DNA from: Nitrospirota bacterium
GTDB taxonomy: Bacteria > Nitrospirota > UBA9217
Direction of reading: 5' to 3'
DNA length: 64,000 nucleotides
Assembly: GCA_963840455.1 (NCBI GenBank)
Contig: CAWIYV010000010.1
Location: 288,001 to 352,000, forward strand
Below the pieces are notes generated by a model, which made no database searches, was not told the DNA's origin, and saw only the letters and a program-made list of their open reading frames with translations. Shown one piece after another: positions 30,937-51,016 of the stretch. Numbering within the stretch: the stretch's first letter is position 1; each line of letters opens with the position of its first letter. The position numbers and the translations under genes are program-made.

Positions 30937-30949
30937 CGGATAACCTCCG

Positions 30950-31928: not shown

Positions 31929-31963
31929 GCCTATTTGTTCTGCGCGCTCTTTTCCTGCGCGTT

Positions 31964-33040: not shown

Positions 33041-33926
33041 GGGGGCATCGCGGTGCGGAGGCTTGCCCGGCCCTTAGCCGCACCGGCTTCTGATAGACCA
33101 TGTCGTTCTGCAGCGTGCGAAGCGTGAAAGCGGTCGAGATGTTGATCAGGGATTCTGAATGGCCGAGCAGAAGGTAGCCACCATCCCGCAGCTTGTCATG
33201 AAAGGTCCCGATCACTTTTTTCTTAGCGTCCCGGTCGAAGTAGATGATGACGTTCCGACAAAAAATAATGTCCAGGTCGCGGATCAGACTGGACTTGAAA
33301 GGGTCCAGGAGGTTCACATAGCTGAAGGAGACCAGGCGGCGGACCGGATCGATGATCCGGAAGTCGCCTTTTCCTTCTTCGACGAAGTATCGCTTCAGCA
33401 TTTCCGGCGGCGTCGCCCGATGCGAGCCCTTCTTGTACACGCCCTTCCTGGCCGTGTGCAGGACCCGCTGGTTGATGTCGCTCCCCATGATCTCCACCTG
33501 CCAGTCGCGCCACCAGTCGCCGGACTCGAGCAGGAGGATCGCAATGGTGTAGGGCTCCTCGCCCGTGGAGCATCCGGCGCTCCAGATGCGCAGGCTCTTC
33601 CTCCCGGTGTCCTTCCCGCGAAGCTCAGGAATGATTTCGTCGGAGAACGCCCTGAGCTGGGCGCTTTCCCGGAAAAAATAGGTCTCGTTGGTGGTGAGAT
33701 TGTCCACGAGGACGATGAGTTCTTCATCGCGCCTCCGGTCGTAGCGGAGAAAATGATAGTATTCTTCGAAGCTCTTGAGCTGGTGCTGCTCGAGCCTGCG
33801 GTTCAGCCGCCGCTCCAGCAGGAACTTGGATCCGTCATCGAAGAAGATCCCGCAGTAGTCGTGGATGAAGTCGCGGAGAAGACGGAAGACGTCGTCGGGG
33901 AGCGAGATGAGCTGGTCCGTGAACAT
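33033..33926 (-). CDS. cheR: Chemotaxis methyltransferase
   Basis: TTNETYFFRE, IWSAGCSTGEEPY, IFCRNVIIYFD and LGHSE motifs. Confidence 0.96.
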   Translation of the reverse strand: MFTDQLISLPDDVFRLLRDFIHDYCGIFFDDGSKFLLERRLNRRLEQHQLKSFEEYYHFLRYDRRRDEELIVLVDNLTTNETYFFRESAQLRAFSDEIIPELRGKDTGRKSLRIWSAGCSTGEEPYTIAILLLESGDWWRDWQVEIMGSDINQRVLHTARKGVYKKGSHRATPPEMLKRYFVEEGKGDFRIIDPVRRLVSFSYVNLLDPFKSSLIRDLDIIFCRNVIIYFDRDAKKKVIGTFHDKLRDGGYLLLGHSESLINISTAFTLRTLQNDMVYQKPVRLRAGQASAPRCPHE

Positions 33927-35918
33927 TTATCTCCCCAGGGCTTCCTTGGCCGCCTGCCGGACGGTGGGGTCCGGATCGTCCGCGGCCATCTGCTCGAGGA
34001 GGAGGTCAGTGGCGGGATCCCGCCGATTCTTGAGGATCTCTGCTGCGGATTTCCTCACGCTCCAGTGAGGATCGAAAAGATGGGACAGAACGGACGGCCG
34101 CACGCTGACCCAGTCATAGGAAGAAAGGGCGCCCAGGACGGTCTTGCGCACTTCAGGGTCCTCGTGGCTGGCAAGGGACAGGAGCGGCTCCAGCGCTTCA
34201 CGGACCGATACCCTGCCGACAACGTCCACCAGGGCAAGGAGAAAGATATCACTGGCCTCCTTCAGGTGGCCCGCGAGGACTGCACCGAAACGGTCCGCGC
34301 CGACCTTTCCCAATGCCCGCGCAGCTGCCGCGCGGACCCAGAGGTCTTCGTCATCCAGCAGGGGGATGAGCGCCTCGGCGGACTCGGCAGATCCGGTCCT
34401 GCCCAGGGTCTCCGCCGCCAGCATCCGCACCTCGGGGTCATCGTCGGTGATTGCCAGGAGGAGCGGTCGGATGGCCCTGCTGTCACGGATCGTGTCGAGC
34501 GCGATGACGACGGCCTTCCGCACGTCGGCTTCTTCGTCCTTCAGGGCGAAGGACAGGGCCTCGAACACCCGCTCTGTGCCGAACCGGCCCAGGAGGCGTA
34601 CGATGTTCCGACGCATGCTGGCATCGCGCAATGTGAAGTCCGTGAGCAGTCCGTCCAGGACCGACTCGTCCCCGATGTCGGCGAGGGCGCGGATGGCGCA
34701 CTCCTGAACGTTCTCATATTCGTCCTCCAGGAGCTTCAACAGCGGCACGACCGCCCTCCTGCTCGTCAGCCTTCCGAGGGACTCCGCGGCCGCACCCCGG
34801 ACATGCCCGTTCTCGTCATCGAGCATCGAAAGAAGGGCATCCTCGGCCTCCCGCCTTCCGAACTCTCCCAGCACCACGGCCACGGCGCGCCGGACCAGGA
34901 CGTTGTCGTCCCCCAGACGCCCGAGCAGCAGCGGCACGCACTCCTGGCCCAGATTACGGAGGGCATGGACCACGGGCTCCACCATCTCCTCGTCGCGGAG
35001 CAGGGACAGGAGCTTCGGTACCGCTGCGGGCCTGCCTGTCCAGCCGAGCACGACCACGGCCGACTTCTGCTGCTCCCCTCCGCACGTGTCGATAAGTTCC
35101 TCGAGGAAAGGCATCGTGCGGTCCGCGATGCCGTCGCGCACTGCAGCGACGATCTTTCCGCGGTCCGCGGGGACGCTCTTCCGGAATACGGTCACCAGCG
35201 CCGCCACGGAAGCCTCGCGAACGATGCGCAGGGGATCAGCGAGGCCGCTGATGAGCGGAGGAAGGGTGTTCACGTTGCCGATCTTCCCGAGGGCCTCGAG
35301 CACCGGTTCACGCAGACTGCTCCGGCCAAGGGCCGCTATCAGCGGCTGCAGGGCGCGCTCGTCGCCGATCTCGCCCAGGGCCTCGGCGGCAGCGTAGTCG
35401 AGCCAGCCCTGGTCTCTGGAGCTCAGGCACCCGATGAGCGCGTCCACAGCGCGCCGGTCCCGGAGCTTGCCCAGGGACTCCGCCGCTGCCACGCGGACGT
35501 TCTCGTCGGCATCGTTCAGTTTTTCGAGCAGGCCCGGTACCGCGCGTACGTCGCGGATGTCCCCGAGGACGTCCACGGCGAACTTGCGCACATCGGGGTC
35601 TTCGCTGTCCAGGAGCGGCAGGAGCGGGCCCACCGCTGCCGCACCGATCTGAGACAGCGCCTCGATCGCCGAGTTCCGCGCTCCGGCGTTGTCCTCGGCG
35701 CTGAGACGCTGCACCAGGCCATTCGTAACATCGTCACCCCCGAAGGCAATGAGCCCCTCAACGGCGGTCTTCCGCACGCGCCAGTCCGGATCGCCCAGGG
35801 CCCGGAGCAGGAGGGGTATCGCCCCGCGCTCCGCGCGGCCAAGGTCCACCGCGGCCTCGCGCCGCTCTTCGGCGTCCTGGCTCTCCAGCTTCCTGCTCAG
35901 AAGTTCAAGGGTGGACAT
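33927..35918 (-). CDS. HEAT/PBS-lyase repeat protein
   Basis: Many L-D-x-x-x-x-VR-x-A-A-x-A-L-G repeats; lies between cheW and cheR. Confidence 0.92.
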   Translation of the reverse strand: MSTLELLSRKLESQDAEERREAAVDLGRAERGAIPLLLRALGDPDWRVRKTAVEGLIAFGGDDVTNGLVQRLSAEDNAGARNSAIEALSQIGAAAVGPLLPLLDSEDPDVRKFAVDVLGDIRDVRAVPGLLEKLNDADENVRVAAAESLGKLRDRRAVDALIGCLSSRDQGWLDYAAAEALGEIGDERALQPLIAALGRSSLREPVLEALGKIGNVNTLPPLISGLADPLRIVREASVAALVTVFRKSVPADRGKIVAAVRDGIADRTMPFLEELIDTCGGEQQKSAVVVLGWTGRPAAVPKLLSLLRDEEMVEPVVHALRNLGQECVPLLLGRLGDDNVLVRRAVAVVLGEFGRREAEDALLSMLDDENGHVRGAAAESLGRLTSRRAVVPLLKLLEDEYENVQECAIRALADIGDESVLDGLLTDFTLRDASMRRNIVRLLGRFGTERVFEALSFALKDEEADVRKAVVIALDTIRDSRAIRPLLLAITDDDPEVRMLAAETLGRTGSAESAEALIPLLDDEDLWVRAAAARALGKVGADRFGAVLAGHLKEASDIFLLALVDVVGRVSVREALEPLLSLASHEDPEVRKTVLGALSSYDWVSVRPSVLSHLFDPHWSVRKSAAEILKNRRDPATDLLLEQMAADDPDPTVRQAAKEALGR

Positions 35919-36438
35919 CGCCCGCCTCCGCCAGCGCCGCCTGTTCTTCTCCGCTCAGGACCCTGCTGATATCAAGGATGATGACGAGCCGGTCTGTCAC
36001 CTTTGCCACGCCCGCGATGAAGCCTGCCTGCCCGCTTGTCGCCGCTTCGGGCGCGGGGCCGATGTCTCGGACGGGAATATGCAGCACCTCGCGAACAGTG
36101 TCCACCACCAGCCCCAGCAGATCCTTCGCAGTACCGGTCCCGCCGTGCAGGGCCCCGCGGGTGATGATCATGCGCATCTTCCTTGGGTCGTTCTGGATAT
36201 TCGTGAGACCGAAGCGCTTGCGAAGGTCCACGACCGGGATGATCGCGCCGCGGAGGTTGATCACACCCTCAATGAACCGCGGCATGTGCGGGAGCGGTGT
36301 GATCTTGAGCGGCCGGAGGGCCTCGGTGATAACGCCGATGTCGAGGCCGAATTCCTCCTGCCCAACCTGGAACGTCACGATCTGGGCAGTCTTCTCAGCG
36401 ACGACGGTCTTCTTGTCCTTTTTCTTATTCTGCAGCAT
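35905..36438 (-). CDS. cheW: CheW adaptor
   Basis: EEFGLDI, ITPLP..IEGVINLRGAIIPVVDL and GLVVD motifs. Confidence 0.93.
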   Translation of the reverse strand: MLQNKKKDKKTVVAEKTAQIVTFQVGQEEFGLDIGVITEALRPLKITPLPHMPRFIEGVINLRGAIIPVVDLRKRFGLTNIQNDPRKMRMIITRGALHGGTGTAKDLLGLVVDTVREVLHIPVRDIGPAPEAATSGQAGFIAGVAKVTDRLVIILDISRVLSGEEQAALAEAGDVHP

Positions 36439-36533: not shown

Positions 36534-38624
36534 CTAGGTCGTAAAACGGTCGATCTCCCTTTTCAGCACCCCGGACTGCGCCGTCAGGACATCCACAGCG
36601 CTGGTCAGCCGCGCCGCCAGCGCCGCGTTCTCCCGCGCAGTCGATTTGATCCGCTCAATGGCCTTCACGATGAGATCACTGCCGGTCCGGACCTCGCTCG
36701 CCGCCCGGTTCATCAGGCCGACCTTGGCGCCCATATTCTCGACAGAGACGGTGATGTTCTTGCTGGCCTTGACCTGCTCGGCGGTCGCCGTCCGTACGAA
36801 CCGCGTGATGTCCCGCATCTTCTCGGCCGCACGCATGATCTGCTCGCTGCCGGCGCGCTGTTCCGTCGTGGCCCGCGCGATCTGGTGCGCCATTTCGTTG
36901 ATCCGGTCCACGGCCTCGTTCACCTGCCCCATTGCCATGACCTGTTCGGCCGCGGCCCTGCTGATGCTGCGGCTCATCTCGCCCGACTGGTCGGCCCGGT
37001 CCACGATCTTTCGGAGAGCGTCCCCCGCCTCTTGCGCAAGCCGGGTCCCCGCTTCCGCCATGAGGACCCCGTTCCGCATGACCTCCACCGCTTCCCGAGA
37101 ATCCTCCTGCACGGATGTGATGAGCGTCCCGATCTCCTGGGTCGATGCAGCAGTGCGATTCGCCAGCTCCCGGATCTGCGCGGCGACGACCGCAAAGCCC
37201 TTGCCGTGCTCGCCCGCCTGTGCAGCTAGGATAGCGGCGTTCAGGGCAAGGAGGCCGGTCTGGTCGGTGATGTCCTCGATGACGGTCAGGATTCCTCCGA
37301 TGTTCTCAGCGCGCCCGCCCAGCCGGTTGATGACATCTGCGGACCGCCGCGACTCATCCTCGATGCGGCGCATCCCCTCGATCGTCTTCTCGATGGAGCG
37401 CATGCCGAGGTCTCGGGCGTCGGCCGTGACCGCATCGGCGAGCCCGGTGGACTGCTTCGCGCGGGCCTCCACCTCCCGGACCGACGCGCTGATCGTGCTG
37501 GTCGAGGCTGCGGTCTCATCGGCCGCCGTCGACAGCGTTTCGACATTCCCGGCGATCTGGCGGACCGCTGCTGACATCTGCGTGATGGCCGTTGAGGTCT
37601 CCTCAATGGACGAAGAAAGGTCGGTCATGAGTCGCGCTACCTCGTCGATGGATGCCGCGGTCTCGATCACAGCGGAGGACGTCTGCTCGGACGTCTCGTA
37701 AAGGTCCTCCACGTTCCCTGCGATCTCCTTCAAGGAGAAGTGCATCTCGTTCACCGATGACGACGCCTCTTCGACGGACTCGGACTGCACCCGGCTCGCG
37801 TCACCGATGTTGGCCGCGACGCCCGCCACCTCGCCAGACACCGTTTCGAGCTTTCCGGAGGACTCCCGTACGCTGCCGACCATCTCCTTGAGACCGATGA
37901 CCATCTGGTTGAGCCCGCGCCCGAGCTCGCCGATCTCGTCGACGGTGTTCACCCGCACGTTCTGCGTCAGGTCGCCCGCCGCGATGCTGGTCGCCACGGC
38001 CTCAGCCTCGGCGGTCGGTGCCGCGATCATCCGGCGGACCATGAAATACACGAGTGTAGATATCGTCAGCACGATGACGATGCTTGTTGCCGCCAGCAGC
38101 AGTACGATCTTTGTGGCGTTCTCCCGGATCTCAGCGCGCGAGAAGGCAAGGTGAATGGCGGCAAGCTTCGTCCCTCCCAGCGAAACGTCAATGGACGCTT
38201 CAACGGGATCCAGTTCCTGATGAACCGCTGCCAGCAGCCGCTTCACATCCTCGCTCTTCTCCGCGGCGAGCACCTTCTTCACGCCGGGGTCCTCGACGTT
38301 AAAGCTGGCGTGCGCGCTGGTGAGTGGAGCGCCATCCGTTCCGGTGAACACGATGGCCAGGATGTCCTTCCCCTGCACCACATCCCCCACCAGGAGATTC
38401 AGCCCCAGGATGTCGCCTGACGCGAGGCGGTCAAGCGCCGCCTTCGCCAGGACAGCGCCGATCTCCCGGCCGCGGGCTTCGAGGGACCGCTCCTGGGAGA
38501 CGAGCATCATGCGGGCCACGAAGAACGTCCCGGCCATCATCAGGACGATGACCCACACGGACAAGGTGGCCACGAACTTCATCCCCATGCTCTTCCTGAT
38601 CCGGTCCTTGATCTTCTGGAACAT
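36534..38624 (-). CDS. Methyl-accepting chemotaxis protein, long signalling domain
   Basis: Two TM segments, [31 protein letters not shown]; start taken as MFQKIK. Confidence 0.94.
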   Translation of the reverse strand: MFQKIKDRIRKSMGMKFVATLSVWVIVLMMAGTFFVARMMLVSQERSLEARGREIGAVLAKAALDRLASGDILGLNLLVGDVVQGKDILAIVFTGTDGAPLTSAHASFNVEDPGVKKVLAAEKSEDVKRLLAAVHQELDPVEASIDVSLGGTKLAAIHLAFSRAEIRENATKIVLLLAATSIVIVLTISTLVYFMVRRMIAAPTAEAEAVATSIAAGDLTQNVRVNTVDEIGELGRGLNQMVIGLKEMVGSVRESSGKLETVSGEVAGVAANIGDASRVQSESVEEASSSVNEMHFSLKEIAGNVEDLYETSEQTSSAVIETAASIDEVARLMTDLSSSIEETSTAITQMSAAVRQIAGNVETLSTAADETAASTSTISASVREVEARAKQSTGLADAVTADARDLGMRSIEKTIEGMRRIEDESRRSADVINRLGGRAENIGGILTVIEDITDQTGLLALNAAILAAQAGEHGKGFAVVAAQIRELANRTAASTQEIGTLITSVQEDSREAVEVMRNGVLMAEAGTRLAQEAGDALRKIVDRADQSGEMSRSISRAAAEQVMAMGQVNEAVDRINEMAHQIARATTEQRAGSEQIMRAAEKMRDITRFVRTATAEQVKASKNITVSVENMGAKVGLMNRAASEVRTGSDLIVKAIERIKSTARENAALAARLTSAVDVLTAQSGVLKREIDRFTT

Positions 38625-38693
38625 GTTCCCTCTCTGCGCAATGACGGCCGCATCCTGCGGCGTTCCATGCACGATGCTGTCCTGCTGCAGTGA

Positions 38694-40787
38694 TCAGACT
38701 TTGAACTTCTGGAGTTCTGACTGGAGAGCGGCGGCCTTTTCCCGGAGCGACGCCTCGGCCATGTCCATCTCGACGGACACGTTGACGTTCTCTTCGGTGA
38801 TCTTCTGGATGCGCGCGATGGCGTCGCTGATCTGCTGGGCGCCGAGGCTTTGCTCGGAGGTGGACCGAGCGACCTGGGCGGCTTGGGACGTGGCGGCCTC
38901 CATGGCCTTGGCGATCTGTTTGCTCCCGACGGTCTGCTCTTGCGTCGCCACCTTCATCTGGCGGGTGATGTCCCTCGTTCTCTCGGCCGCCTGGGCGATG
39001 CGCTCGCTGCCCTTCTGCTGCTCCTGCATGGCGTGAGCGATCTTTTCGATCTGCTCCGCGATGTTCAGAGCCGCATCGGTGATCTGCGCCACTCCCTTGG
39101 CCTGTTCGGCCGTGGTCAGCTCGATGGCGCGCGCCATCTCCGCCGACTGCCGGGAGCTCTCGGCGACCTGCTGGAACACATCGCTCGTCACCTTGACGAG
39201 TCCCGTGCCGTTCTCCACAGCCTGCAGGCCCTTCGCCATTGCCTGCACGCTGGCGGCGGTCTCCTGCTGGACCGCGGAGATGACGTTGGCGATCTCTTTG
39301 GTGGAAGCGGCGGTGCGCTCCGCAAGCTCGCGGATCTCTTCGGCGACGACAGCGAATCCTTTCCCGTGCTCGCCCGCCTGCGCTGCCAGGATTGCCGCGT
39401 TCAGGGCGAGGAGGCTGGTCTGGTCGGTCACCTCGTCGATGACCTTCAGGATCTGTCCGATCTCCTGCGAACGCTTTCCGAGCCGATTGACCGTCTCCGC
39501 CGTGGCCTCCACGGTGGAACGGATGTTCTCCATGCCGGTCATCGCCTCACGGGCCGCGGCCATGCCCTGCTCCGACGCGCTCCGCGCGACCTTTTCCGCG
39601 AGCCTCGCCGACTCCAGGGCCTTTTGCTCCACCGCCTTCACGGTGGCACTCATCTCGGTGATGGAGGACGATGTCTGCTCCGCGGCCGAGGAGAGGGTCT
39701 CCGTGTTCTCCGACACCTGGCGGATGGACGCCAGCGTCTGGACGATGGAGGCCGCCGTATCGTCGGCTGCCAAGGACAGACCGCTGGCGTTCTGCGCAGT
39801 TTCCTCGACTGAGGCGGCCATCTCCGCGACCGAAGACGATGCGTCAGCGGCGGCCTGGGACATCTCCGCCGCGTTCTCCGCAACACCCCTGATCGAAGCG
39901 ATCATCTCGTCCACGGTCATGGCCGTCTGCTCCCCGGCCTCTTGCTGGACCCGTGCACCCTGGCTCATCTTCTGCGTTGCCGTGTTCATGATCTGCATGG
40001 CTTCGCCAAGGCCGCCCGTCATCTGGTTGATCCGGCCGAGCATCTCCCGCAGGCTTGAGGAAAGCGTGTTGATGGCGTTGCCCAGTTCGGCGATCTCGGT
40101 CTTTCCGCTCACCGTGACATTGCGCGCGAGGTCGCCGGCCGCCATGAGGCTCGCGGTCCCGGCCATCTCGCCCAAGGGGTCGGTGATCGTGCGCTTCATG
40201 AACAGGGTCACCAGGTACGTGGCGAGCACAAAGACGACGACCGCCACGATCACCGACCGCAGGAGCAGGTCCCGGATCGGCCGGTTCACAGCGCTCCCCT
40301 TCAGCGCGATCCGGAGTACGCCCATCTTCTTGCCGTCGGGCCCCATGAGCGGGACGACCTTTTCATACTGGTCCCCGCCCTCATCGACATAATCCTGCAC
40401 CAACGGTTCCGCGGCCTCCAGGGCCTTCCTGCTGCCGGGATCGGTCGCGGGGGAACCTTCGCGCTCCTTGTCCGTGGCATAGAGGACCTTCCCGTCCTTG
40501 TCCACAACCATGGCCCGGGAGATATCCCGGTCGGTCTCTCTGAGCCCCCGAAGCTTTTCGCTCATGCCGTCCATGGCGGAGAGCGGAAGACCGAACCCGG
40601 TGACCTTGTCGATGTCCTTCTTGACGCCCTCGGCCATGGCCGTGGTCCGTCCGAGCACTGCTTCCCGGTACTTGCCGGCCGCACTGGTGATATTGAGTCC
40701 CGTGTTCAATCCAAGGGCCACGAGGAGGATGCCGGCCGTTGCAACCACCGCCCTCGTCTTCAGCGTCATGGCGGTCCACAGTTTCAT
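38694..40787 (-). CDS. Methyl-accepting chemotaxis protein, long signalling domain
   Basis: Two TM segments, Cache-like periplasmic domain, [39 protein letters not shown] overlap with the upstream SBP gene. Confidence 0.94.
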
Positions 40788-41710
40788 TTTATCACCTTCG
40801 TCGCATCGGAAATAAGGTCCATGGAAGGTTTCAGCCCCAGGGCTGTCGCCTCCTTGAGGTTCAGGACCAGTTCGACCAGTTTGGGGACCTCAGGTGCGAT
40901 GTTTGCCGGGTTCTCGCCGTTCAGGATCCGCGCGACCATTCGGGCCGCTGCCTCGCCTTGCTCGGTTGCGCTCGGCGCGAGGGTCAGGATGACACCCTTG
41001 TCGCCTGAACCGCCGGTCTGGCTCATGGTCGGTATCTTGCTGCCATGGGCCGCCTTCACGATCTCGGCCAGCGCCTCGTTCACCGTCGCGCTGACGGAGA
41101 TGAACACCGCGTCGGCCCTGCCTGCGTACGTGAGCGCCCGGGCATCATCAAGCCGCTTGACGGCCATTTTCACCGTCTGGAACCCGTACTGGCCTTCAAG
41201 GGCCGTGAGCTCCTCGACCTGCTTCACCGAATCAGGCTCCAGCTCGTTGTAGACCACGGCCAGCTTGGTGAAGTTCGTGAGCTTCTTGGCATATTTGAGC
41301 AGGCTCGTGATCGGGACCTTGGAGCTGATGCCGGTCATGTTGCGTGCGGCAACGCCGATGCCAGCAGGATCATAGACCCCGGCGTAGACGATGGGGGTGG
41401 ATTTCGTTTCCCGGATGGCCAGGGCGGCAGGCGCGCCGCCGTAGGTCACCAGGACATTCACGTCGGCGACCACCAGTTTCCGGACGGCATTGGTCCACGA
41501 AAGCGGATCGGGCGCGGGCATCTGGAGCAGCGTGTCCACCTTGCGGCGGTCGAAGCCCTCCTTGATCAAGCCGTTGGTAAAGGCCCGATGAAGCTCCTGG
41601 TAGTAGCCGATGTTCCCTGCCATCACCACGCCGATGGTCTTGTCGGCCGCTTCCGCGGGCGTTGCGCAGATAAGCAATGCAGCACAGATCAGCCAGGTAA
41701 TCGTTCTCAT
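40784..41710 (-). CDS. Periplasmic solute-binding protein (ABC_sub_bind-like), no cognate permease in the window
   Basis: Signal peptide [21 protein letters not shown]; [32 protein letters not shown] and [11 protein letters not shown] patterns. Confidence 0.88.
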
Positions 41711-41720
41711 GCGCCCTCCG

Positions 41721-43607
41721 TTACCATTTCCACGACAGGGTGGCAAGAATGGTCTGGTTCGTGCCATCCTGTGTATCGTCAAGCTTGTCGTCGATCCTCC
41801 GGATCTGGTACCGGAGATCGTAGCCCAGGTTCTTCGAGACCCGGATCTCGAGGTCGGCGCCCGCAATCGTATCGACCGTCTTGATGGTCGTGAGATCGGC
41901 GATCCCGTTGCTCCCGGCGATCACGCCGGAGTTCTGCCAGGAGCCTCGTGACCAGCTTTTGGACACGTCGGCCGTGAAAATAATGGCATCAGCCAGTGCA
42001 TGGCTCAGCGTGAGTGCGGCCACATGCGCCGTGTCGGCATAGGGAACGCCGGTCTCGGCCGTGATGGCGCTGGAAAGGTCGGTGTAAGCGATGGGGCCGG
42101 TGTGCTTGTTCTGGAAGAACGAGTAGCTCGGCGTTACCGATGTCGTCTTCCCGACCAGGAAGGTGAAGGACCCGAGGAGCCGGTCGCGCTCGTTCGTCCA
42201 TTTGTCGGTGAACGGAGCATTGAGCCCGCTTCGCTCCTCGCGCACAGTTGCTCCGGACAGCAGCATATTGAACCACGGCTTGGGCGTCCAGGTAGCTGTC
42301 AGGCGGGCCTGGTCGGAGGTCTCCGGATAGGTGTTGTCCACGCTGTTCGCGGGCACGTTGGCGCTCTGATGGCTTATGTCACCGCGAAGGATGATCCTGT
42401 TCGTCACGCGGTAGGTCGCGCCAAGCCGGGCCATCGTCCGATTGACCTTGTCGTCCAGCTGCCACATCGTCGGGTCTATGTCGCGCTTGAGGTTCTCATA
42501 GCCCAGCTCTGCCCGCAGAGTGAGGTCCTTGGTGGCGCGGTAACGCACCAGACCAGTCATGATGTCCTTCTGATAGCTGATGGCGTTCCGGACCAGGTAG
42601 GTCGTCGAGACAGGCAGCCCCGCCGTGGTCACGGTGTCCGTCACAGCGCCCGGGTTGTTCGCATCCACTTCGTAGTGACGGTATTTGACGGCCACGGTGA
42701 CGTCCTTCGTCGGGATCCAGCTGAGGTCGCCAGCGGAGTTCGTGAAGTCGGATTTGGCTCCACTATCATTGTTCTTCCGGTCGCCTGTGGAGTACGTGAC
42801 AGCAGCGGCGATCCTGCCCGTGTGGGAGGTGTGGACCTTGAACGTGTCGGTCGAAGACTCAATGTCGGGCATTAGGTTGTGCGTGTAGGTGGTCGCTCCG
42901 CCCGTGTCGGTCAGGTACTTGTCCCGCGTATCTTTGAACTTCTGCGTGTCATGGCTGTACTCCGCCTCCAACCACTGGAGGTGGCTGTTGATGGTGACCT
43001 TCGCCCCCTCTGTTTCATAATCGATATCGCGGCTGCGGGACATCTTGTCGCCGGCAGTGAAGGAGTTCATGAACCGCTGTTGTATGGTGCCGTGCTTCTC
43101 CTGGCTCCTTGCCTCCAGATAGATATGGAACGGGAAGTCCGGCGCCTTGAAACGGATCTGTGCCCGGTTCATGGCGTTCGAAGCTCCATATACGTCCGCG
43201 GGGTTCAGGTCTGTCACGGTCATGCCGGTCGTGCTCTGGCCGATGGAATAATGGTCCAGGTTATGGAACATCGACCGGGACAGCATGTTCAGCATGATGA
43301 TGTCCTTGTATGCATAGTCGAACTCCGCGAAGTAGTCCTTGCTGTTCAGGACGTAGGTCTCGAGCAGCATGCGGGTCGGCAGCGGGTCGTACTCGATGAC
43401 AGCCGAGCCGGCCGGGGACGAGTGCTGGTACTCATATTCTCCCGCCATGGGATTGCCGCTCGTCATGTTCCAGCGGTATCCCAGCCTGATGTCCCCTTCA
43501 AAGGGCGTGCCGAGCTGGTACTGCCCTCCGGTGGGCGTCTTTTCCTGAGCCCAGAGCGGCGGCGCCAGGAGCACTATCAATGCGATCAGGTATATGATCT
43601 TTTTCAT
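41721..43607 (-). CDS. Outer-membrane beta-barrel, MtrB/PioB-like cytochrome-associated porin
   Basis: Signal peptide, alternating amphipathic strands, C-terminal LSWKW aromatic BAM signature; directly downstream of a decaheme cytochrome. Confidence 0.82.
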   Translation of the reverse strand: MKKIIYLIALIVLLAPPLWAQEKTPTGGQYQLGTPFEGDIRLGYRWNMTSGNPMAGEYEYQHSSPAGSAVIEYDPLPTRMLLETYVLNSKDYFAEFDYAYKDIIMLNMLSRSMFHNLDHYSIGQSTTGMTVTDLNPADVYGASNAMNRAQIRFKAPDFPFHIYLEARSQEKHGTIQQRFMNSFTAGDKMSRSRDIDYETEGAKVTINSHLQWLEAEYSHDTQKFKDTRDKYLTDTGGATTYTHNLMPDIESSTDTFKVHTSHTGRIAAAVTYSTGDRKNNDSGAKSDFTNSAGDLSWIPTKDVTVAVKYRHYEVDANNPGAVTDTVTTAGLPVSTTYLVRNAISYQKDIMTGLVRYRATKDLTLRAELGYENLKRDIDPTMWQLDDKVNRTMARLGATYRVTNRIILRGDISHQSANVPANSVDNTYPETSDQARLTATWTPKPWFNMLLSGATVREERSGLNAPFTDKWTNERDRLLGSFTFLVGKTTSVTPSYSFFQNKHTGPIAYTDLSSAITAETGVPYADTAHVAALTLSHALADAIIFTADVSKSWSRGSWQNSGVIAGSNGIADLTTIKTVDTIAGADLEIRVSKNLGYDLRYQIRRIDDKLDDTQDGTNQTILATLSWKW

Positions 43608-43616
43608 GTCAGCCTC

Positions 43617-44627
43617 CTATCGGACGAACGTGCCCTTGCCGCTGGGCGAGGGGAGATCGGTGCCATGGATCTGCGAATGGCAGTCGGTGCACCGGGTATA
43701 GACGTTCTTCTTGGACTGCGCCGTGGTGGAGCCGGCGAGCGGATGTGTCGGATGACACTGCAGGCAGAGGTACGGTTCCCGCAACGACAGCAGGTTATTG
43801 TTCACGGACCCGTGGGGCGTATGGCAGGCCCGGCAGTCCTCGGTCAAATCAGCGTGCTCATAGAGGAACGGGCCCTGTTTCTCAGAATGGCACTGGGTGC
43901 AGGTCTCCTTCACCGTGTCCTTGCGGAGGTTCCGGCCCGACATGCCGCCGTGAGCGTCGTGGCAGTCCGTGCAGAAGATCTTCTTCTCCGGCACCGGATG
44001 GTGGTTCGGGAGCCGGAAGTTCGCCTGTACGTCTGGGTGGCACTTGTAGCACAGGTCCGTCATCTCCCGGGGCTTCACCTTGAGGTTGTGGCCCATGTGG
44101 ATGTTGTGGCAGTCGGAGCAGGACACGTCGGACATGTTGTGCGTGCTCGCGTTCCAGTTGTGCAGGTTGAAGGTCGCGTTCGCCGTGTGGCACTTGAGGC
44201 AGATGAGCGATTTGGCCTGCGCCGGGATCTTCTTCATGTCCACCAGCGTCCGGTAGTCGCAGGCCGTCTGCTTCCCGGCCTTCGCGTCCTTTGCCACCTT
44301 CTCGGGTGTGAGGCCCTCGATGGCCAGGCTCCCCGGCCCGTGGCAGGACTCGCAATTCACGATGGGCATGCCCGACTCGCGCGACAGCTGGGCACCCATG
44401 GTGGACAGGTCGAAGTCGCGCCGCCGCGTGTCATGGAAGTGGCAGGCCTTGAGGCAGTTGTCCGTTCCCACGTAGTCCGCGTCGAGGCGGCCGGCGATCA
44501 TCTTCTCGTATTCCTTGTTCAGGTAGATCGGTTTCGTCTCCTTGAGCGTCGCGCACCCAGCCGCGACAAAGAAGGAACCGAGGATCCCGAGCAATATCCA
44601 TTTCCTCATTTTCAGCGTACGTTCCAT
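43617..44627 (-). CDS. Decaheme c-type cytochrome lipoprotein (DmsE/MtrA/PioA-like)
   Basis: Lipobox VAAGC; 9 CxxCH plus one CxxxCH (CLKACH); CTDCHSQIHG C-terminus; AAGGAGG RBS before 44627. Confidence 0.92.
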   Translation of the reverse strand: MERTLKMRKWILLGILGSFFVAAGCATLKETKPIYLNKEYEKMIAGRLDADYVGTDNCLKACHFHDTRRRDFDLSTMGAQLSRESGMPIVNCESCHGPGSLAIEGLTPEKVAKDAKAGKQTACDYRTLVDMKKIPAQAKSLICLKCHTANATFNLHNWNASTHNMSDVSCSDCHNIHMGHNLKVKPREMTDLCYKCHPDVQANFRLPNHHPVPEKKIFCTDCHDAHGGMSGRNLRKDTVKETCTQCHSEKQGPFLYEHADLTEDCRACHTPHGSVNNNLLSLREPYLCLQCHPTHPLAGSTTAQSKKNVYTRCTDCHSQIHGTDLPSPSGKGTFVR

Positions 44628-44658
44628 GATAAGTAAGTCCTCCTTTAGCGGGTCTGGG

Positions 44659-46686
44659 TTACGGACGTTCTCCGGATGTGTTCGGAGCACCGTACAGCAG
44701 GTAGCTTTTCGCCCCTGCGCACCATCCGAATGCATACGGGGCAGCGCCACACTGGCCGTCAATTGTATTGCCGACCGAATAGTTCATGGCGTTATCATCA
44801 ATCCAGTCAATTGAATCGTAGATCAACCTCTTCACATATCTGCTGTTATGCACGTACCCGCCCTCCTCATGGAAGAGCATGGCCATGTTAGAGGCAGCCC
44901 CCATATTGTTTTTGCCGGTCGTATTGCCGGTCCAGTCGGTGTCCCCAGTGGAGAGCCAGTTGCTGTAATTGAAATAGGGAAAGGCTCCAAAGGAAAAACT
45001 GGGGCTGCTTGCAAGAAGCGACTGCGAAAGTGCTTGCAGGGAGTCCTCATATTTTATTTTCTCCTGTTCAAGAACCTCGGCAAGGCCCGTGCTTGAACCC
45101 GCATGGCAGTTAAAGCAGATTTCGCTCGATACAGCCGTAATCGTTGTCCCATCCTTCATCACCGGTTGGAAAAGGTGATTGGCAGGCAAGCCCGGCCGGT
45201 ACATATGACACCCGACACAGGGGCCGCTCGTTCCGGTATTAGGAACAGAAGCTGTTCCTATCTCTTCATGCTTGAAAGACTGCGGATCGGAATAGCTCCT
45301 CCCGTAATATTCGTACCCGATGCCCCGGAACATGGTTCCGCCTGCAGTCAGGTAGTGCCCGTCAACAAGCATATAGCCAAGAGGAAAACCAAAAGTGTCA
45401 AACAGACTTCCGAAATCCTCTGTGGTTGTCTGACCCGTATTCAGCGCGTGGATCGTCCTGCCGCTCCCTCTTCCGGTATGACAAGGCAGGCACACATTCG
45501 ATGCGCCGATATCGGGATACTGATACGTGACCTGTGCAGCGGTCGGAATGATTGGTGAAGCCGGCCAGTTATTAACAGGTAGCGTATATGTTGCTCTGAA
45601 TGGTCCGGGATTACGAACCGTCCCCTTGTTGTCCGTATGGCACCCTGCGCATTCCAGCATTTGAGGCTTGAACTGGGGGTCATAGGCTATTACGGGGCTG
45701 CTTCCCGTTGCAATGCCGTCGGCAAGGGCAGTATTGTTGTTTCGCAGGGCATCGGCATAGGACGCAAATCCTGTTGTAGTATGGCATCTCTGGCACTGTG
45801 CTCTGCTTCCAAAGCCGGGAAGCGGTGTCGCCGGGGATGGGAAGAGGCAGGGGCCATCTTCACAGGACCAGTTATAAGCGCCCCAGGGGCCGGTTGAGTT
45901 TCTATTCGCGTGGAGCGAAGCGGCCCATTCGCGATTGATGTCGGCTGTTTTATGAGGATTGTGGCAGTCGGTACAGACCGTCTCACTTGCAAAGTTCATG
46001 GCGTAGCCGACCGGTTCCGTGCCGCTCAAGTTATGTCCGCCCCCGTCGTATGTGCCTGCTTTTGCGAAGTGCGTGTCGGTGATGATATATGAACTGCCTG
46101 TCGGAACAGATGTCAAATGAGTGGGCGTCGCTGCCGTGTTGAGGGGGTCGTTCGGATCCAGGAGTTCATGGCATCCCGTGCAGGTTCTGAGCTGGGCCGA
46201 AACCTGAAGCGTGGAGGTCGTGCCGATGACCATCGACGTGGTCGTGGCAAAACCAATGGGTCCGGATCCGCCGGCCGCGACATGGAGGCTCCCGCCGCCA
46301 TGGCAGGACTCACAGCCTACCACCGGCCGGGCAACGTTGCCCGTGTAGCCGGCGGTGAAGGAGTTTCCTGCGCCGTCCCCATTTGAGTCGTGGCAATTTA
46401 TGGTGCAGCCCGAGATCTGCCCGAGTGTGGGATTCCCTGCGCTGTACAGGTTCCCGAGAGGCTCCACATTCGCGTGCTTCGTCAGCATCCAGTCCGAGGT
46501 CTGCGACGTGTGACAGGACGTACAGGTCTTGAGCCCCACCGTCGGCGTTCCCACAGTGACGACACCGCTCACGGTCTGGACCGCAACACCGGTCGGCTGG
46601 TCCGTGCCGCAGGCGCCGAGCAACGCGCCGAGCACCAGGACAATCGCCAGCATAGATCCCAATAATCCCTTCTTGCGCACTTTCAT
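44659..46686 (-). CDS. Surface multiheme c-type cytochrome lipoprotein (OmcB/OmcC-like)
   Basis: Lipobox LLGAC; 9 CxxCH plus one CxxxCH (CTINCH). C-terminal GYVHNSRYVKRLIYDSIDWID resembles the Geobacter OmcB family (from memory). Confidence 0.88.
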   Translation of the reverse strand: MKVRKKGLLGSMLAIVLVLGALLGACGTDQPTGVAVQTVSGVVTVGTPTVGLKTCTSCHTSQTSDWMLTKHANVEPLGNLYSAGNPTLGQISGCTINCHDSNGDGAGNSFTAGYTGNVARPVVGCESCHGGGSLHVAAGGSGPIGFATTTSMVIGTTSTLQVSAQLRTCTGCHELLDPNDPLNTAATPTHLTSVPTGSSYIITDTHFAKAGTYDGGGHNLSGTEPVGYAMNFASETVCTDCHNPHKTADINREWAASLHANRNSTGPWGAYNWSCEDGPCLFPSPATPLPGFGSRAQCQRCHTTTGFASYADALRNNNTALADGIATGSSPVIAYDPQFKPQMLECAGCHTDNKGTVRNPGPFRATYTLPVNNWPASPIIPTAAQVTYQYPDIGASNVCLPCHTGRGSGRTIHALNTGQTTTEDFGSLFDTFGFPLGYMLVDGHYLTAGGTMFRGIGYEYYGRSYSDPQSFKHEEIGTASVPNTGTSGPCVGCHMYRPGLPANHLFQPVMKDGTTITAVSSEICFNCHAGSSTGLAEVLEQEKIKYEDSLQALSQSLLASSPSFSFGAFPYFNYSNWLSTGDTDWTGNTTGKNNMGAASNMAMLFHEEGGYVHNSRYVKRLIYDSIDWIDDNAMNYSVGNTIDGQCGAAPYAFGWCAGAKSYLLYGAPNTSGERP

Positions 46687-46766
46687 AACTTACCTCCCGT
46701 CTCATTGGTTTCAGTTCTCATGTTCCTGGCCCGCCTTAAATCTAAAAATAATGGTAATCACTATTT

Positions 46767-46795
46767 ATTGTAGCCTAAAAAATTGCTTTTGTCAC
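46767..46795 (-). promoter_or_regulatory. sigma70 promoter for the cytochrome-porin-SBP-MCP cassette
   Basis: GTGACA-N17-TACAAT with an upstream A-tract, in a very AT-rich gap. Confidence 0.7.
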
Positions 46796-46807: not shown

Positions 46808-47557
46808 TTACGCACCAATTGCTTTTTCCACGTCCAGCAGGATATACAGTCGGTCGTCCTTCCGGGCAATGCCTTTCAGGAACTCCGCGCCGGCGCCCTG
46901 CGCCACGGTCTCAGGGGCCGGCCGAACGGCAGAAGACAGGAACCGCACCACCCCCCTGACCCGGTCGACGAACAGCCCCACCTGGTCATCCTGTCCCAGG
47001 CTCACGACGATGATGCGGGACTTCTCATCCCTGGCGCTCGCGGCAAGGCCCAGCCTGCGGTTCAGATCGACGACCGGCATCACCGTGCCCCGGAGGGAGC
47101 ATACGCCGACAAGATAGTCCGCCGTATGCGGCACCGGCGTGATCTCTTTGGGTGTCAGGACCTCCCGGACCCGGTCAACGGGGACAACATATTCTTCATT
47201 GCCGAGGAGGAAGGAGAGCATCTCGAGATCTTGCTCCTCCAGCTGCTGCTCCGGTTCTTCTGTCCCGGACACAACAGGCCCGGGCGCAGGCTCATCCTTC
47301 TTCTGAGGCCCCGGGGCAGCCGTGGCCGGCGGCGCTGTTGCGCTTATCTCGTTCTCCGGCAGCATCGCGGGAGCCTGCCCCGGAGCCGCGAGAGGACCAT
47401 TCGGCATGAACGGAGTCTCCTGGGGCAGGGGCGGGGACGCCGGGGCGGGGACGCCGGCCTCATTCTGCTCCGAAGCCGGGAATGCCTGATCGGCCCTCTG
47501 GGTGCTTACCGCCTTTGCCTTCTCCGCCGCCTTCTTTCTTGCCGCTAGGATATCCAT
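46808..47557 (-). CDS. cheW: CheW adaptor with Pro/Ala-rich N-terminal extension
   Basis: EEYVVPV, ITPVP..LVGVCSLRGTVMPVVDL and GLFVD motifs. Confidence 0.92.
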   Translation of the reverse strand: MDILAARKKAAEKAKAVSTQRADQAFPASEQNEAGVPAPASPPLPQETPFMPNGPLAAPGQAPAMLPENEISATAPPATAAPGPQKKDEPAPGPVVSGTEEPEQQLEEQDLEMLSFLLGNEEYVVPVDRVREVLTPKEITPVPHTADYLVGVCSLRGTVMPVVDLNRRLGLAASARDEKSRIIVVSLGQDDQVGLFVDRVRGVVRFLSSAVRPAPETVAQGAGAEFLKGIARKDDRLYILLDVEKAIGA

Positions 47558-47570
47558 AATGATTCCTCTG

Positions 47571-47636
47571 CAAGGTCCAATGCTGAACGCTCAAGGAACT
47601 GCGATCGCTCCTGACGTTAAACCTTGAACATTGAAT
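47571..47636. repeat. Heptamer-period inverted-repeat element
   Basis: CAAGGTCCAATGCTGAACGCTCAAGG versus ACGTTAAACCTTGAACATTGAA. Confidence 0.45.
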
Positions 47637-47637
47637 A

Positions 47638-48435
47638 CTATTTTAATTCCTCCGCCACGTCCTCCACGATCTCATCCGTGATGGCCGCCGCGCCCCTGCC
47701 GAAACCCTCGATCAGAGCGTTGCCTGCAATGACATTGATCAGCCGCGGCACGCCGTCACTGTAGCGGTAGAGGGCCGCGATCGCGCCCTCGTCAAAGAGC
47801 GGGGCGTCCCGTCCCGCCACGCTCAGCCGGTGCGCCACATACTCTCCGGTCTCTTGTTCGTCCAATAGACCGAGGTGGTACTGGAGCCCGATGCGCTGCC
47901 TCAGAGCGCGGTACGACCGCTTCGCCAGCCGCGTCCTCAGCTCTGTCTGACCGATGAGCACCAGGGCCAGGAGGTTACGGTCGTCGAGCTGGAAGTTCGT
48001 GAGCAGCCGGAGCTCCTCAAAGGTCTCCTTGCCAGGGATAAGCTGCGCCTCGTCGATGATGATTGCCGTCCGCTTGCCCGCTTCATAGATCTCATACAGC
48101 TTTGCGTTGATCCCCTCGAGCAGGCCGTGGCGAACATGCTGCTCCTCGTCAACCCCGAGGCGGAGCGCGACGGTCTGGAGGAGCTGCATCGGCGAAAGCC
48201 GGGGGTTGATGATCAGCACCGGATGGAACCGCTCGTCCAGCGAGTCGATGAGCGCCCGGGACAGCGTCGTTTTGCCGGACCCGATGTCGCCGGTCAGGAG
48301 CACGATGTCCATGTCCTCCACGGCGAGCTGGAGACGCGCCAGGGCCTCGGCGTGCTTCCGGCTCTGATACAGGAAACGCGGGTCCGGCGTCTTGCTGAAC
48401 GGCTTTTCCCTCAGCCCGTAGAATTCTTCGTACAA
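47638..48435 (-). CDS. ExeA/GspA-like AAA ATPase
   Basis: YEEFYGLREKPF, TGDIGSGKT, IIIDEAQ, LIGQ and GVPRLIN motifs; TTG start. Confidence 0.92.
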   Translation of the reverse strand: MYEEFYGLREKPFSKTPDPRFLYQSRKHAEALARLQLAVEDMDIVLLTGDIGSGKTTLSRALIDSLDERFHPVLIINPRLSPMQLLQTVALRLGVDEEQHVRHGLLEGINAKLYEIYEAGKRTAIIIDEAQLIPGKETFEELRLLTNFQLDDRNLLALVLIGQTELRTRLAKRSYRALRQRIGLQYHLGLLDEQETGEYVAHRLSVAGRDAPLFDEGAIAALYRYSDGVPRLINVIAGNALIEGFGRGAAAITDEIVEDVAEELK

Positions 48436-48445
48436 GTAGTTCTCC

Positions 48446-48533
48446 GGAGTCAGAAGCCGGAATCCCGGGGCACGGAGAACGGTGCACTCTCATCCCTTTC
48501 TCCTGCCTGCTGACCCCTGTCTCCTGACTACTC
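48446..48533. repeat. Heptamer-period inverted-repeat element
   Basis: GGAGTCAGAAGCCGGAATCC versus TCCTGCCTGCTGACCCCTGTCTCCTGACTACTC. Confidence 0.45.
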
Positions 48534-48541
48534 TTTACTTA

Positions 48542-50533: not shown

Positions 50534-50538
50534 AATTT

Positions 50539-50643
50539 TATGATTGCTGATTTTGGATTGCGGACTTCCGGATCATGACCGGAGATCTTCTTGTGTTTTT
50601 CCGGAACGTTCATTCCCCAATCCGTAGTCTGCAATCCGCAATA
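50539..50643. repeat. Heptamer-period inverted-repeat element
   Basis: GATTGCTGATTTTGGATTGCGGACTTCCGGAT versus AATCCGTAGTCTGCAATCCGCAAT. Confidence 0.55.
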
Positions 50644-50644
50644 G

Positions 50645-51016
50645 TTACTTCCCCCCCACCGCTTTCTTCACCAGCACCATGAGGTCTTCCTTCTTGAACG
50701 GTTTGACCACGTAGCCCATGGCGCCCAGCGCCAGGCCCCGCTTCTTGTCCTCTTCGGTCTTTTCCGTGCTCACAATGATGAGCGGGATGTCCTTGAAGGA
50801 CGGGTTCGCCTTGACAAAACCGATGAGCTCCAGGCCGTTGATGTCCGGCATATTGATGTCCGTGATGATGAGGTCGAACCTCCTGCTGGGCAGCATCTTG
50901 AGCGCCTCGAAACCGTTGTTCGCCTCGGCGGCGAAGAAATCACCGGCCTCCTCAAGGGCGATCCGGATAACGGAGCGGATGGCTTTGGAATCCTCCACGA
51001 TCAGCACGTTCTTCAT
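50645..51016 (-). CDS. cheY: CheY-type response regulator
   Basis: LIVEDS, TDINMP, VSTE, VKPF; upstream of cheA. Confidence 0.9.
   Translation of the reverse strand: MKNVLIVEDSKAIRSVIRIALEEAGDFFAAEANNGFEALKMLPSRRFDLIITDINMPDINGLELIGFVKANPSFKDIPLIIVSTEKTEEDKKRGLALGAMGYVVKPFKKEDLMVLVKKAVGGK

Follow-up and report, generated by a model that had tools for sequence, protein, structure and literature searches.

Within the 64,000-nt stretch of an uncultured Nitrospirota genome that we analyzed (the window), a chemosensory (che) operon carries, between its two cheW genes, a cassette of three genes for an outer-membrane conduit, one for a periplasmic binding protein (SBP) and two for chemoreceptors (MCP1 and MCP2). 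Gene families and order come from a Pfam scan of 24 genes and bear out the arrangement read in the initial annotation, DUF4388-cheY-cheA-ATPase-cheW-insert-cheW-HEAT-cheR-cheB-GAF-cheY, all on the minus strand (Table 1). The 10-nt gap between the barrel and SBP genes, which contains GGAGG, and the ATGA overlap of the SBP and MCP1 genes, both proposed in the same annotation, were also found in the sequence. G+C content falls to 0.561 at 44001–46000, over the cytochrome genes, compared with about 0.61–0.64 in the surroundings. Neither a mobile-element gene nor an ABC permease or ATPase gene for the SBP was detected among the 24 genes scanned, and the same Pfam scan showed no gene for a periplasmic or inner-membrane electron carrier inside the cassette. 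Among 14 named control genomes, only those of Synechococcus, Thermus and Deinococcus gave DUF4388 matches.

Table 1. Features of the che operon and of the cassette between its cheW genes (positions are those of the window).
Feature	Position	Strand	Basis or remark
DUF4388 (+ weak GAF)	51013-52245	minus	Pfam
CheY (upstream flank)	50645-51016	minus	Pfam
CheA	48542-50533	minus	Pfam
AAA_22 ATPase	47638-48435	minus	Pfam
CheW (upstream flank)	46808-47557	minus	Pfam
Sigma-70-like promoter candidate, GTGACA-17-TACAAT	46795-46767	minus	10/12 consensus matches; in 121-nt cheW-cytochrome spacer
cytC, MtrC-like cytochrome, 675 aa	44659-46686	minus	Pfam Mtrc-MtrF_II-IV_dom
cytA, MtrA-family decahaem, 336 aa from ATG at 44627	43617-44627	minus	phmmer
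MtrB-fold outer-membrane barrel, 628 aa	41721-43607	minus	AlphaFold2 + Foldseek
SBP, PF04392 (ABC_sub_bind) periplasmic binding protein, 308 aa	40784-41710	minus	Pfam
MCP1, 697 aa	38694-40787	minus	Pfam
MCP2	36534-38672	minus	Pfam; alternative start, ATG at 38624
CheW (downstream flank)	35905-36438	minus	Pfam
HEAT-repeat protein	33927-35918	minus	Pfam
CheR, CheB, GAF protein (between HEAT and last CheY)		minus	Pfam
CheY (downstream end)	30553-30936	minus	Pfam
Upstream che block, DUF4388(-GAF)/CheY/CheA/AAA_22 ATPase/CheW	46808..52245	minus	
Downstream che block, CheW/HEAT/CheR/CheB/GAF/CheY	30553..36438	minus	

By homology and predicted fold, cytA and the barrel belong to a genuine Mtr-type conduit, of which cytC would encode the surface cap. 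The product of cytA, rightly called a decahaem cytochrome at the outset, has nine CXXCH motifs and one CX3CH motif, a pattern found in 28 of 30 homologues, as well as a lipobox-like AAGC, and matches MtrA (6R2Q chain A) with an E value of 1.4e-43 over residues 53–327 (phmmer). The cytC product likewise carries nine CXXCH and one CX3CH, together with a signal peptide containing a lipobox-like LGAC. It matches the Pfam family Mtrc-MtrF_II-IV_dom (8e-15; 55.2 bits, cut-off 30), and a comparison with the PDB gave no sequence match to solved MtrC or OmcA. Since this cap is MtrC-like, its match being to MtrC/MtrF domain II/IV and nothing in it OmcB-specific, the label “OmcB-like” first attached to it was wrong. 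The cytC gene is missing from three of the 20 loci of the family and from a second Nitrospirota family (see below). For the barrel, an AlphaFold2 model built from 47 sequences (pLDDT 85.5) had 6R2Q chain B as its best Foldseek match (E 1.2e-18, TM 0.76/0.74), with TonB-dependent receptors as runners-up at a TM of about 0.4. Thus, the suggested MtrB/PioB likeness stands for the fold and not for the sequence: the Pfam family MtrB_PioB was not matched at E up to 0.01, and a 12-sequence profile gave no PDB match at E up to 10.

The SBP belongs to PF04392 (8.5e-32; 111 bits, cut-off 25.9), and its profile matches 3LKV, 6HNI and 3LFT in the PDB at E values of 7e-32 to 4e-30, some motifs being shared with these structures and others clade-specific. 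Table 1 of PMC10443332 lists L-Trp, L-Tyr or L-Phe as ligands of the three solved members of PF04392, so the SBP together with MCP1 could form an ordinary small-ligand receptor. MCP1 consists of a transmembrane segment, an sCache-like periplasmic domain, a second transmembrane segment, HAMP and a long signaling domain (MCPsignal 2.6e-42, HAMP 1.3e-10, weak dCache_1/sCache_3_2). Its sensor domain contains neither Cys nor His, the mature SBP contains no Cys, and no redox-cofactor motif was found in either, so that the step which would read the haem redox state is not visible there. MCP2 is a transmembrane chemoreceptor that matches only MCPsignal and HAMP, its periplasmic domain matching no Pfam family. 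When the SBP was co-folded with two MCP1 sensor domains, the score was 0.58, compared with 0.00 for the best of three controls; at least 96% of the contacts agreed between runs and the partner pLDDT was at least 92. Among solved complexes, 116 of 157 attain the mark used for calibration, compared with 2 of 215 mismatches; scores of 0.60 or under account for only 18 of the 157 and for both mismatches. The prediction that the SBP contacts the periplasmic domain of MCP1 is accordingly graded as weak support.

The cassette had been credited with its own sigma-70 promoter. A promoter-like site is indeed present, and both hexamers with the 17-nt spacing are kept in five of seven aligned cheW-cytochrome spacers of relatives, but the consensus match itself is not above chance (6 sites in 20 kb versus 3.4 ± 1.8 in shuffles). 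A stronger promoter-like site, matching 11 of 12 positions, lies at 31928–31900 upstream of the GAF gene, and none of the intergenic gaps of the cassette holds a minus-strand terminator-like site. One run search returned four RNA-labelled runs from three studies that match the locus, with word shares of 0.05–0.09. The RNA-library contigs, 150–516 nt long among the pieces listed and 90–99% alike, are scattered over cheW, both MCP genes, the SBP, the barrel, both cytochromes, the other cheW and the ATPase gene. One of them spans the cytC/cytA junction, and none of those seen bridges the barrel-SBP or the SBP-MCP1 junction; being fragments, possibly with DNA carry-over, they cannot establish a single transcript.

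Conservation analysis placed the cassette between two cheW genes in all 20 family loci retrieved, which come from 15 genera, and in the same position in three loci of the second Nitrospirota family, whose barrels are 28–29% identical. Upstream, the che gene order is constant in all family loci holding that flank, and downstream it is constant in the family loci, the second family and relatives without the barrel. The conduit thus stays linked in the synteny check that had been suggested, and the cassette is not a one-off insertion, because the loci of both families retain it. In each of the five barrel-less genomes of the family, the che cluster, MCP1 and MCP2 (the latter also present in the family loci) are retained and cytC, cytA, the barrel and the SBP are all missing; in one of them, a 108-aa remnant of the SBP still adjoins MCP1. 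This joint loss, with the MCPs left in place, indicates that the SBP belongs with the conduit, and the survival of MCP1 in all five indicates that the receptor can work without either. One barrel-less genome has a different sensor at the MCP1 position; it contains a CLSCH motif, and its Tll0287-like match is weak (E 0.0049). For the other four, whose sensor type is unchanged, the ratio of sensor to signaling identity is 0.63–0.76, compared with 0.69–0.86 in conduit-bearing family members; the MCP1 sensor would thus be just slightly more diverged where the conduit is gone, a shift too small to be convincing.

The trio of cytA, barrel and SBP also occurs, with a transducer, outside che clusters. 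Among 57 loci collected with a barrel profile, cytA precedes the barrel in 56, an SBP comes after the barrel in 48 of the 49 with at least 1 kb of downstream sequence, mostly after a gap of 5 to about 130 nt, and beyond the SBP lies a membrane transducer in 44 of the 45 with at least 3 kb. The SBP is absent after the barrel in 1 of the 57 loci, as well as in two stand-alone loci belonging to other families. Pfam scans of 13 stand-alone loci identified the transducer as an sCache_3_2-HAMP-MCP in seven, a broken one in L061 and a HAMP histidine kinase in four, with no clear type in L076. The stand-alone sCache MCP is orthologous to that of the cassette, the sensor domain of MCP1 being 30–37% identical to those of the stand-alone modules, and MCP-type and kinase-type loci are interleaved on the barrel tree. 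All five kinase sensor domains examined have a CXXCH in their periplasmic part, a hint of a c-type haem that would face the conduit. Neither the second family nor most of the stand-alone loci have a surface cytochrome. Judged by these gene neighborhoods, the core that moves together is decahaem, barrel, SBP and transducer, with interchangeable outputs. The initial annotation, which described one cassette in a che operon, is supported in that the cassette is a conserved, tightly packed unit; it missed this core, its occurrence outside che clusters and the joint loss of conduit and SBP.

The genome, which is 100% complete by markers, has three CheA genes and no detectable FlhA; the missing FlhA fits a non-flagellar chemosensory pathway and agrees with the non-motility role first assigned to the operon. 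It encodes 60 ORFs with three or more CXXCH, making extracellular electron transfer plausible, and the only MtrB-type barrel found is that of the cassette. A second locus of like design in the same genome comprises a TonB-dependent receptor, two PF04392 proteins and an sCache_4-HAMP-GGDEF-EAL protein.

The cassette is made of recognizable conduit, binding-protein and receptor parts that are tightly packed, conserved as a unit and, as far as conduit and SBP are concerned, lost jointly. We give an even chance to the reading that conduit and SBP are a redox input device for MCP1. The MtrA-like decahaem in its MtrB-fold barrel, capped by the MtrC-like cytochrome, would then serve at the outer membrane as the antenna of a sensory module that includes the SBP. 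Its haems would take up the redox state of something extracellular, for instance dissolved Fe or Mn, a mineral or electrode, a shuttle or another cell acting as partner. The SBP would relay this state across the periplasm to MCP1 and its sCache domain, and MCP1 together with MCP2 would drive the CheA/CheW/CheR/CheB pathway encoded around them. We infer that the signal consists of electrons, with the SBP as relay, and that the output is non-flagellar, perhaps type IV pili, biofilm or the expression of surface proteins. With somewhat less confidence, the module might be called an electroreception device, in which a haem wire reports the redox potential of external solids or solutes to an SBP docked on a chemoreceptor, thereby steering a non-flagellar chemosensory pathway, and the Mtr conduit is an antenna rather than a respiratory outlet; in relatives, the SBP would do so beside a haem-bearing histidine kinase.

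The conduit could instead be a working respiratory or Fe(II)-oxidizing MtrCAB that is merely co-expressed with the che genes, the SBP and MCP1 detecting an ordinary small molecule that cues its production. This would suit the sole MtrB-type barrel found in a genome with many multi-CXXCH ORFs, the MtrC-like cap with ten haem motifs, such a cap being usual in respiratory conduits, the persistence of MCP1 without the conduit, the candidate internal promoter before the cytochrome genes and the aromatic amino acid ligands listed for solved PF04392 proteins (PMC10443332). We nevertheless regard it as unlikely, since the SBP tracks the barrel and not the receptor, the trio recurs with kinases bearing periplasmic CXXCH, the cassette lacks a gene for a periplasmic or inner-membrane electron carrier, and the second family and most stand-alone loci dispense with the surface cytochrome. 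Less probable still is a role of the SBP in the structure or assembly of the conduit, for example as a periplasmic factor for docking or maturation, with no part in signaling and with the adjoining receptors sensing something else. The near-invariant adjacency of barrel and SBP and their joint loss would be explained in this way, whereas the transducer that almost always follows the SBP, the ATGA overlap with MCP1, the co-fold score (weak support) and the PF04392 proteins placed between a TonB-dependent receptor and a GGDEF-EAL sensor elsewhere in the genome speak for signaling; moreover, we know of no SBP-type partner of Shewanella MtrAB as solved (6R2Q). A chance neighborhood or a recent mobile insertion functionally unrelated to the che genes, at which the slightly lower G+C and the possible own promoter might hint, is already contradicted by the shared position in two families with such divergent barrels and by the lack of mobile-element genes among the 24 genes scanned, and can be practically dismissed.

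It is still an open question how bacteria locate insoluble electron acceptors or donors and commit to using them. Sensing genes and conduits are unlinked in Shewanella and Geobacter, which makes their coupling hard to pin down. With conduit, putative relay and receptor in one unit, a redox input device of the kind proposed here would offer a defined four-protein set for testing outer-membrane redox sensing, and Mtr/Mto-type genes in metagenomes need not imply iron respiration or iron oxidation.

Like Shewanella MtrCAB (6R2Q), the conduit is encoded in the order C-A-B and combines a decahaem homologous to MtrA, a barrel of MtrB fold and, as putative cap, a lipoprotein-like cytochrome with ten haem motifs and an MtrC/MtrF domain match. 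It differs in that the barrel has no detectable MtrB-family sequence match, the cap does not match the sequences of solved MtrC/OmcA, the signal of cytA is lipobox-like and one of its haem sites is CX3CH, and the conduit genes are followed by those for an SBP and receptors inside a che operon. The MtoAB and PioAB pairs of Fe(II) oxidizers resemble the second family and most stand-alone loci in having no surface cytochrome. The clusters of these pairs encode electron carriers (MtoD/CymA, PioC) and are not known to include a PF04392 protein and a sensor. With the binding-protein-dependent receptors named in passages of PMC10443332, Tar with maltose-binding protein and CtpL with PstS, the cassette shares a binding protein without transporter genes next to a transmembrane chemoreceptor, the contact being predicted with weak support; in contrast to them, its SBP gene is linked on the genome to a haem conduit of the outer membrane.

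The comparison with Geobacter Che5 made in the initial annotation holds in part. By gene order, the operon shares with Geobacter cluster 5 (Esn) the cheA-ATPase-cheW adjacency, which in G. sulfurreducens is GSU2222-2221-2220 (passages of PMC5585712), as well as cheR, cheB and cheY. However, it has two mcp genes, and the Geobacter beta-group cluster is described, in passages of PMC2577667, as having none, so the Nitrospirota operon is not simply that cluster. In the same passages of PMC5585712, EsnA is a separate GAF-type MCP without a periplasmic domain, and the role reported for the cluster is non-flagellar: esnB and esnC mutants fail on electrodes yet reduce Fe(III) oxide. The control of extracellular cytochrome expression once attributed to the Geobacter cluster is represented in the passages surveyed solely by unpublished preliminary results on “extracellular matrix material”; GSU1228/OmcI is also named in passages of the Geobacter literature. 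No Mtr-type conduit tied to a binding protein, chemoreceptor or che operon appears in the literature passages surveyed (including PMC8805035, PMC5566968, PMC12133095, PMC13647500 and PMC8235581). The Geobacter cluster contains no conduit, unlike the Nitrospirota operon. In Shewanella redox sensing and congregation, the genes are reportedly not linked to each other, and their coupling is taken to be indirect. The congregation of Shewanella around insoluble electron acceptors (PMC5789149) offers a parallel in the notion of outer-membrane cytochromes feeding into chemotactic behavior. In contrast to that system, the conduit, putative relay and receptors of the Nitrospirota cassette form one conserved unit.

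The window (C10:288001-352000) lies in a genome of 4.03 Mb on 14 contigs, whose completeness is rated 100%. Two cytochromes (cytC and cytA), a 628-aa protein (barrel), a binding protein (SBP) and two chemoreceptors (MCP1 and MCP2) stand there between two blocks of che genes. According to Pfam, the flanks of this che operon are functionally unrelated to it, with LolA, DUF520 and FtsK on one side and a deaminase on the other. The tight packing described in the initial annotation was borne out: barrel and SBP are separated by 10 nt with a GGAGG inside, and SBP and MCP1 overlap in ATGA. Gene coordinates further give a gap of 9 nt between cytA and barrel and a spacer of 121 nt ahead of the first cytochrome. 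Each MCP extends for ~445 residues past HAMP, far longer than in common receptor classes, and judged from length alone both would fit the 64-heptad class, the longest one (class name from an excerpt of PMC8235581). A second chemosensory cluster is located ~22 kb past the end of the window.

Location and content of the che operon and of related loci (G000, genome of the window; C10 and C11, its contigs; L-numbers, loci of relatives, except L099 from G000; positions without prefix refer to the window)
Feature	Position	Strand	Content
Upstream che block		minus	DUF4388 (plus weak GAF), CheY, CheA, AAA_22 ATPase, CheW (Pfam)
Middle block		minus	675-aa cytochrome (cytC), 336-aa cytochrome (cytA), 628-aa protein (barrel), PF04392 (ABC_sub_bind) protein (SBP), two transmembrane MCPs (Pfam)
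MCP1	38694-40787	minus	
MCP2	36534-38672	minus	
Downstream che block		minus	CheW, HEAT-repeat protein, CheR, CheB, GAF protein, CheY (Pfam)
Promoter-like site between cheB and GAF gene	31900-31928	minus	TTGATA-17-TATAAT, 11/12
Second chemosensory cluster	G000:C10:373897-378546		911-aa CheA frame, MCP, another DUF4388 protein
Second sensory locus, outside the window	G000:C11:480401-486700 (L099:4402-10698)		TonB-dependent receptor, two PF04392 proteins, sCache_4-HAMP-GGDEF-EAL protein (Pfam)
Histidine kinase beside stand-alone trio	L068:13076-15040		
ORF abutting MCP1	L121:12967-13293		108 aa
Phosphonate-bd-fused chemoreceptor	L035:12309-15215		
Phosphonate-bd-fused chemoreceptor	L121:7992-10805		
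Phosphonate-bd-fused chemoreceptor	L122:8108-10903		

Both cytochromes carry nine CXXCH motifs and one CX3CH motif. Over almost its full length, cytA is similar to chain A of 6R2Q, the Mtr complex of Shewanella (E 1.4e-43). Of 30 homologues, 28 share its 9+1 haem pattern and 24 have a lipobox-like motif close to the N-terminus. For the barrel, Pfam yields a weak outer-membrane-barrel match and nothing more, and sequence and profile searches of the PDB gave no match. Its AlphaFold2 model (47 sequences, pLDDT 85.5) is a large barrel of ~26–28 strands, an approximate count read off DSSP elements. The best Foldseek match of this model is MtrB (6R2Q_B; E 1.2e-18, TM 0.76/0.74), followed by TonB-dependent receptors at TM ~0.4. 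The 675-aa cytC has no sequence match to solved MtrC or OmcA, and matches the MtrC/MtrF domain II/IV family above the Pfam cut-off. Thus, the cytA match, the barrel fold and the cytC domain indicate an Mtr-type C-A-B set, with an MtrC-like protein in place of the OmcB-like lipoprotein initially annotated.

Among 36 further genomes of the window's family, 25 proved to have the barrel. In ~20 kb around the barrel from 20 of these 25 genomes, representing 15 genera, the order cheA-ATPase-cheW-[cytC]-cytA-barrel-SBP-MCP1-MCP2-cheW-HEAT-cheR-cheB is kept in every locus as far as the DNA extends; some loci have an extra MCP between MCP1 and MCP2, and cytC is absent from three. Identity to the window genes is uneven, with 72–86% for cytA, 60–87% for SBP, 52–85% for MCP1, 40–69% for the barrel and 39–56% for cytC. 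A second Nitrospirota family has the same operon, where cytA-barrel-SBP-MCP sits between two cheW genes without cytC (28–29% identity for the barrel, 55–56% for cytA). The cassette inside the che operon is therefore no one-off insertion, an outcome that, according to the initial annotation, would have refuted its proposal. In a barrel tree rooted on a paralogue without SBP, a root of uncertain placement, the che-embedded groups of the two families form separate, well-supported clades with stand-alone forms, found outside che clusters, between them. Some of the same che clusters of relatives (L035, L121 and L122) also encode chemoreceptors of 931–968 aa with a C-terminally fused Phosphonate-bd (PhnD-like) domain, which should be cytoplasmic, an odd site for a periplasmic-type binding domain.

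Scanning one genome per species with a barrel profile returned 57 loci, nearly all from Nitrospirota MAGs, the others being labeled Desulfobulbales (two), “Bacterium BMS3Bbin14” and “Betaproteobacteria”; these counts are not independent of the 20-locus family sample, because many genomes are common to both. cytA lies just before the barrel in 56 loci, the remaining one being cut off there. Where the locus extends 1 kb or more downstream, SBP follows the barrel in 48/49 cases (exception L071); where it extends 3 kb or more, either a receptor of the MCP1 type or a histidine kinase follows in 44/45 (exception L063). Thirty-one loci are che-embedded, 23 have no che gene in the DNA examined and three are too short to judge. 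Pfam analysis of 13 stand-alone loci revealed two forms. In one, SBP precedes an sCache_3_2-HAMP-MCP; in the other, it precedes a Phosphonate-bd protein, after which comes a histidine kinase of the HAMP-GAF or HAMP-PAS type. By sequence, the sensor domains of the stand-alone MCPs are orthologues of the MCP1 sensor, with which they share 30–37% identity. Among the kinases, each of the five sensor domains compared has a CXXCH on the periplasmic side. In the kinases of L068, L069, L074 and L087, which may be haem-c sensor kinases, the periplasmic domain falls outside any Pfam family and has a conserved CXXCH, then H.

Within the phylum, the barrel family occurs in 77 of 301 sampled genomes, including 39/63 of the window's family and 10/12 of the second; it was not found in three large families of this sample (0/50, 0/28 and 0/25 genomes). 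None of 20 loci from 12 further families is che-embedded; of the 19 that could be judged, 17 have SBP after the barrel. In a minority of decahaem-barrel pairs of the barrel family (L034 on G055:C32, L071, L100 and L108), the barrel is not followed by a PF04392 gene; such pairs may represent plain conduits, in which case they would serve as natural controls.

Five barrel-less genomes of the family (98–100% complete), whose che loci were located by ATPase search, all harbor the same che cluster in the same place, preceded by LolA and DUF520 in four, the loci extending that far. cytC, cytA, barrel and SBP are all missing from the che locus of each, an MCP1 orthologue (54–61% identity) is present in all five, and the other receptors are present in the four loci that extend further. 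Thus, SBP tracks the conduit, and the receptors track the che cluster. In L121, the ORF abutting MCP1 corresponds to the C-terminus of a PF04392 protein (E 0.0023), which indicates that conduit and SBP were deleted in this relative rather than primarily absent. In L122, the MCP1 position is taken by a receptor with another type of periplasmic domain, which contains a CLSCH motif and shows a weak Tll0287-like match below the threshold.

Conduit and SBP could be an input device for MCP1 that would pass on the redox state outside the cell, a reading for which we consider the case evenly balanced. It is suggested by the constancy of the cytA-barrel-SBP trio while the output varies, the haem motif of the kinase variant, the joint loss of conduit and SBP and the overlap of the SBP and MCP1 genes; co-folding of SBP with the MCP1 sensor (score 0.58 versus 0.00 in controls) weakly supports it. 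Its weak point is that we saw no residue or cofactor in SBP or MCP1 able to read the haem redox state. Moreover, the PF04392 proteins with solved structures have aromatic amino acids as ligands (excerpt of PMC10443332) and MCP1 persists without the conduit in relatives, both of which count against a redox input. The main rival, a respiratory conduit merely co-expressed with a small-ligand receptor, appears rather unlikely to us.

Apart from SBP, the genome has PF04392 genes only in the second sensory locus. Its combination of TonB-dependent receptor, PF04392 and GGDEF-EAL proteins makes the design shared with the cassette look like a general one, of which the cassette would be the haem-wire version. 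The TonB-dependent receptor is split over several ORFs, with Plug and barrel parts separate, and is possibly broken or mis-assembled.

The sigma70 promoter initially proposed for the cassette matches the consensus at 10/12 positions. Such sites are no more numerous in the region than in shuffles. TGACA-17 nt-TACAAT or TATAAT recurs in five of seven aligned, otherwise unalignable cheW-cytochrome spacers, indicating that the cassette may have its own promoter besides read-through from upstream. No terminator-like sites were found on the coding strand in the intergenic gaps of the cassette, and most of the genes are covered in part by contigs from RNA libraries of relatives, although contigs cannot demonstrate a single transcript. 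The promoter-like site that ranks highest in the region precedes the GAF gene, so that GAF and CheY, the last two genes, may be transcribed on their own. Flagella are an unlikely target of the che pathway, since FlhA was not found in this genome, which has three CheA genes, ~7 MCP genes and seven T2SSE-family ATPases. Sixty of its ORFs contain at least three CXXCH motifs.

Our literature search, which covered few supplements, retrieved no paper in which an Mtr-type conduit is linked to both binding protein and receptor. The proposed match of the backbone to the Geobacter Che5 cluster holds in part. The cheA-ATPase-cheW gene order resembles that of the Geobacter beta-group cluster, where cheW, the ATPase and cheA are esnB, GSU2221 and esnC (excerpt of PMC5585712). 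In contrast to that cluster, which an excerpt of PMC2577667 describes as being without mcp genes, the operon of the window carries two MCPs.
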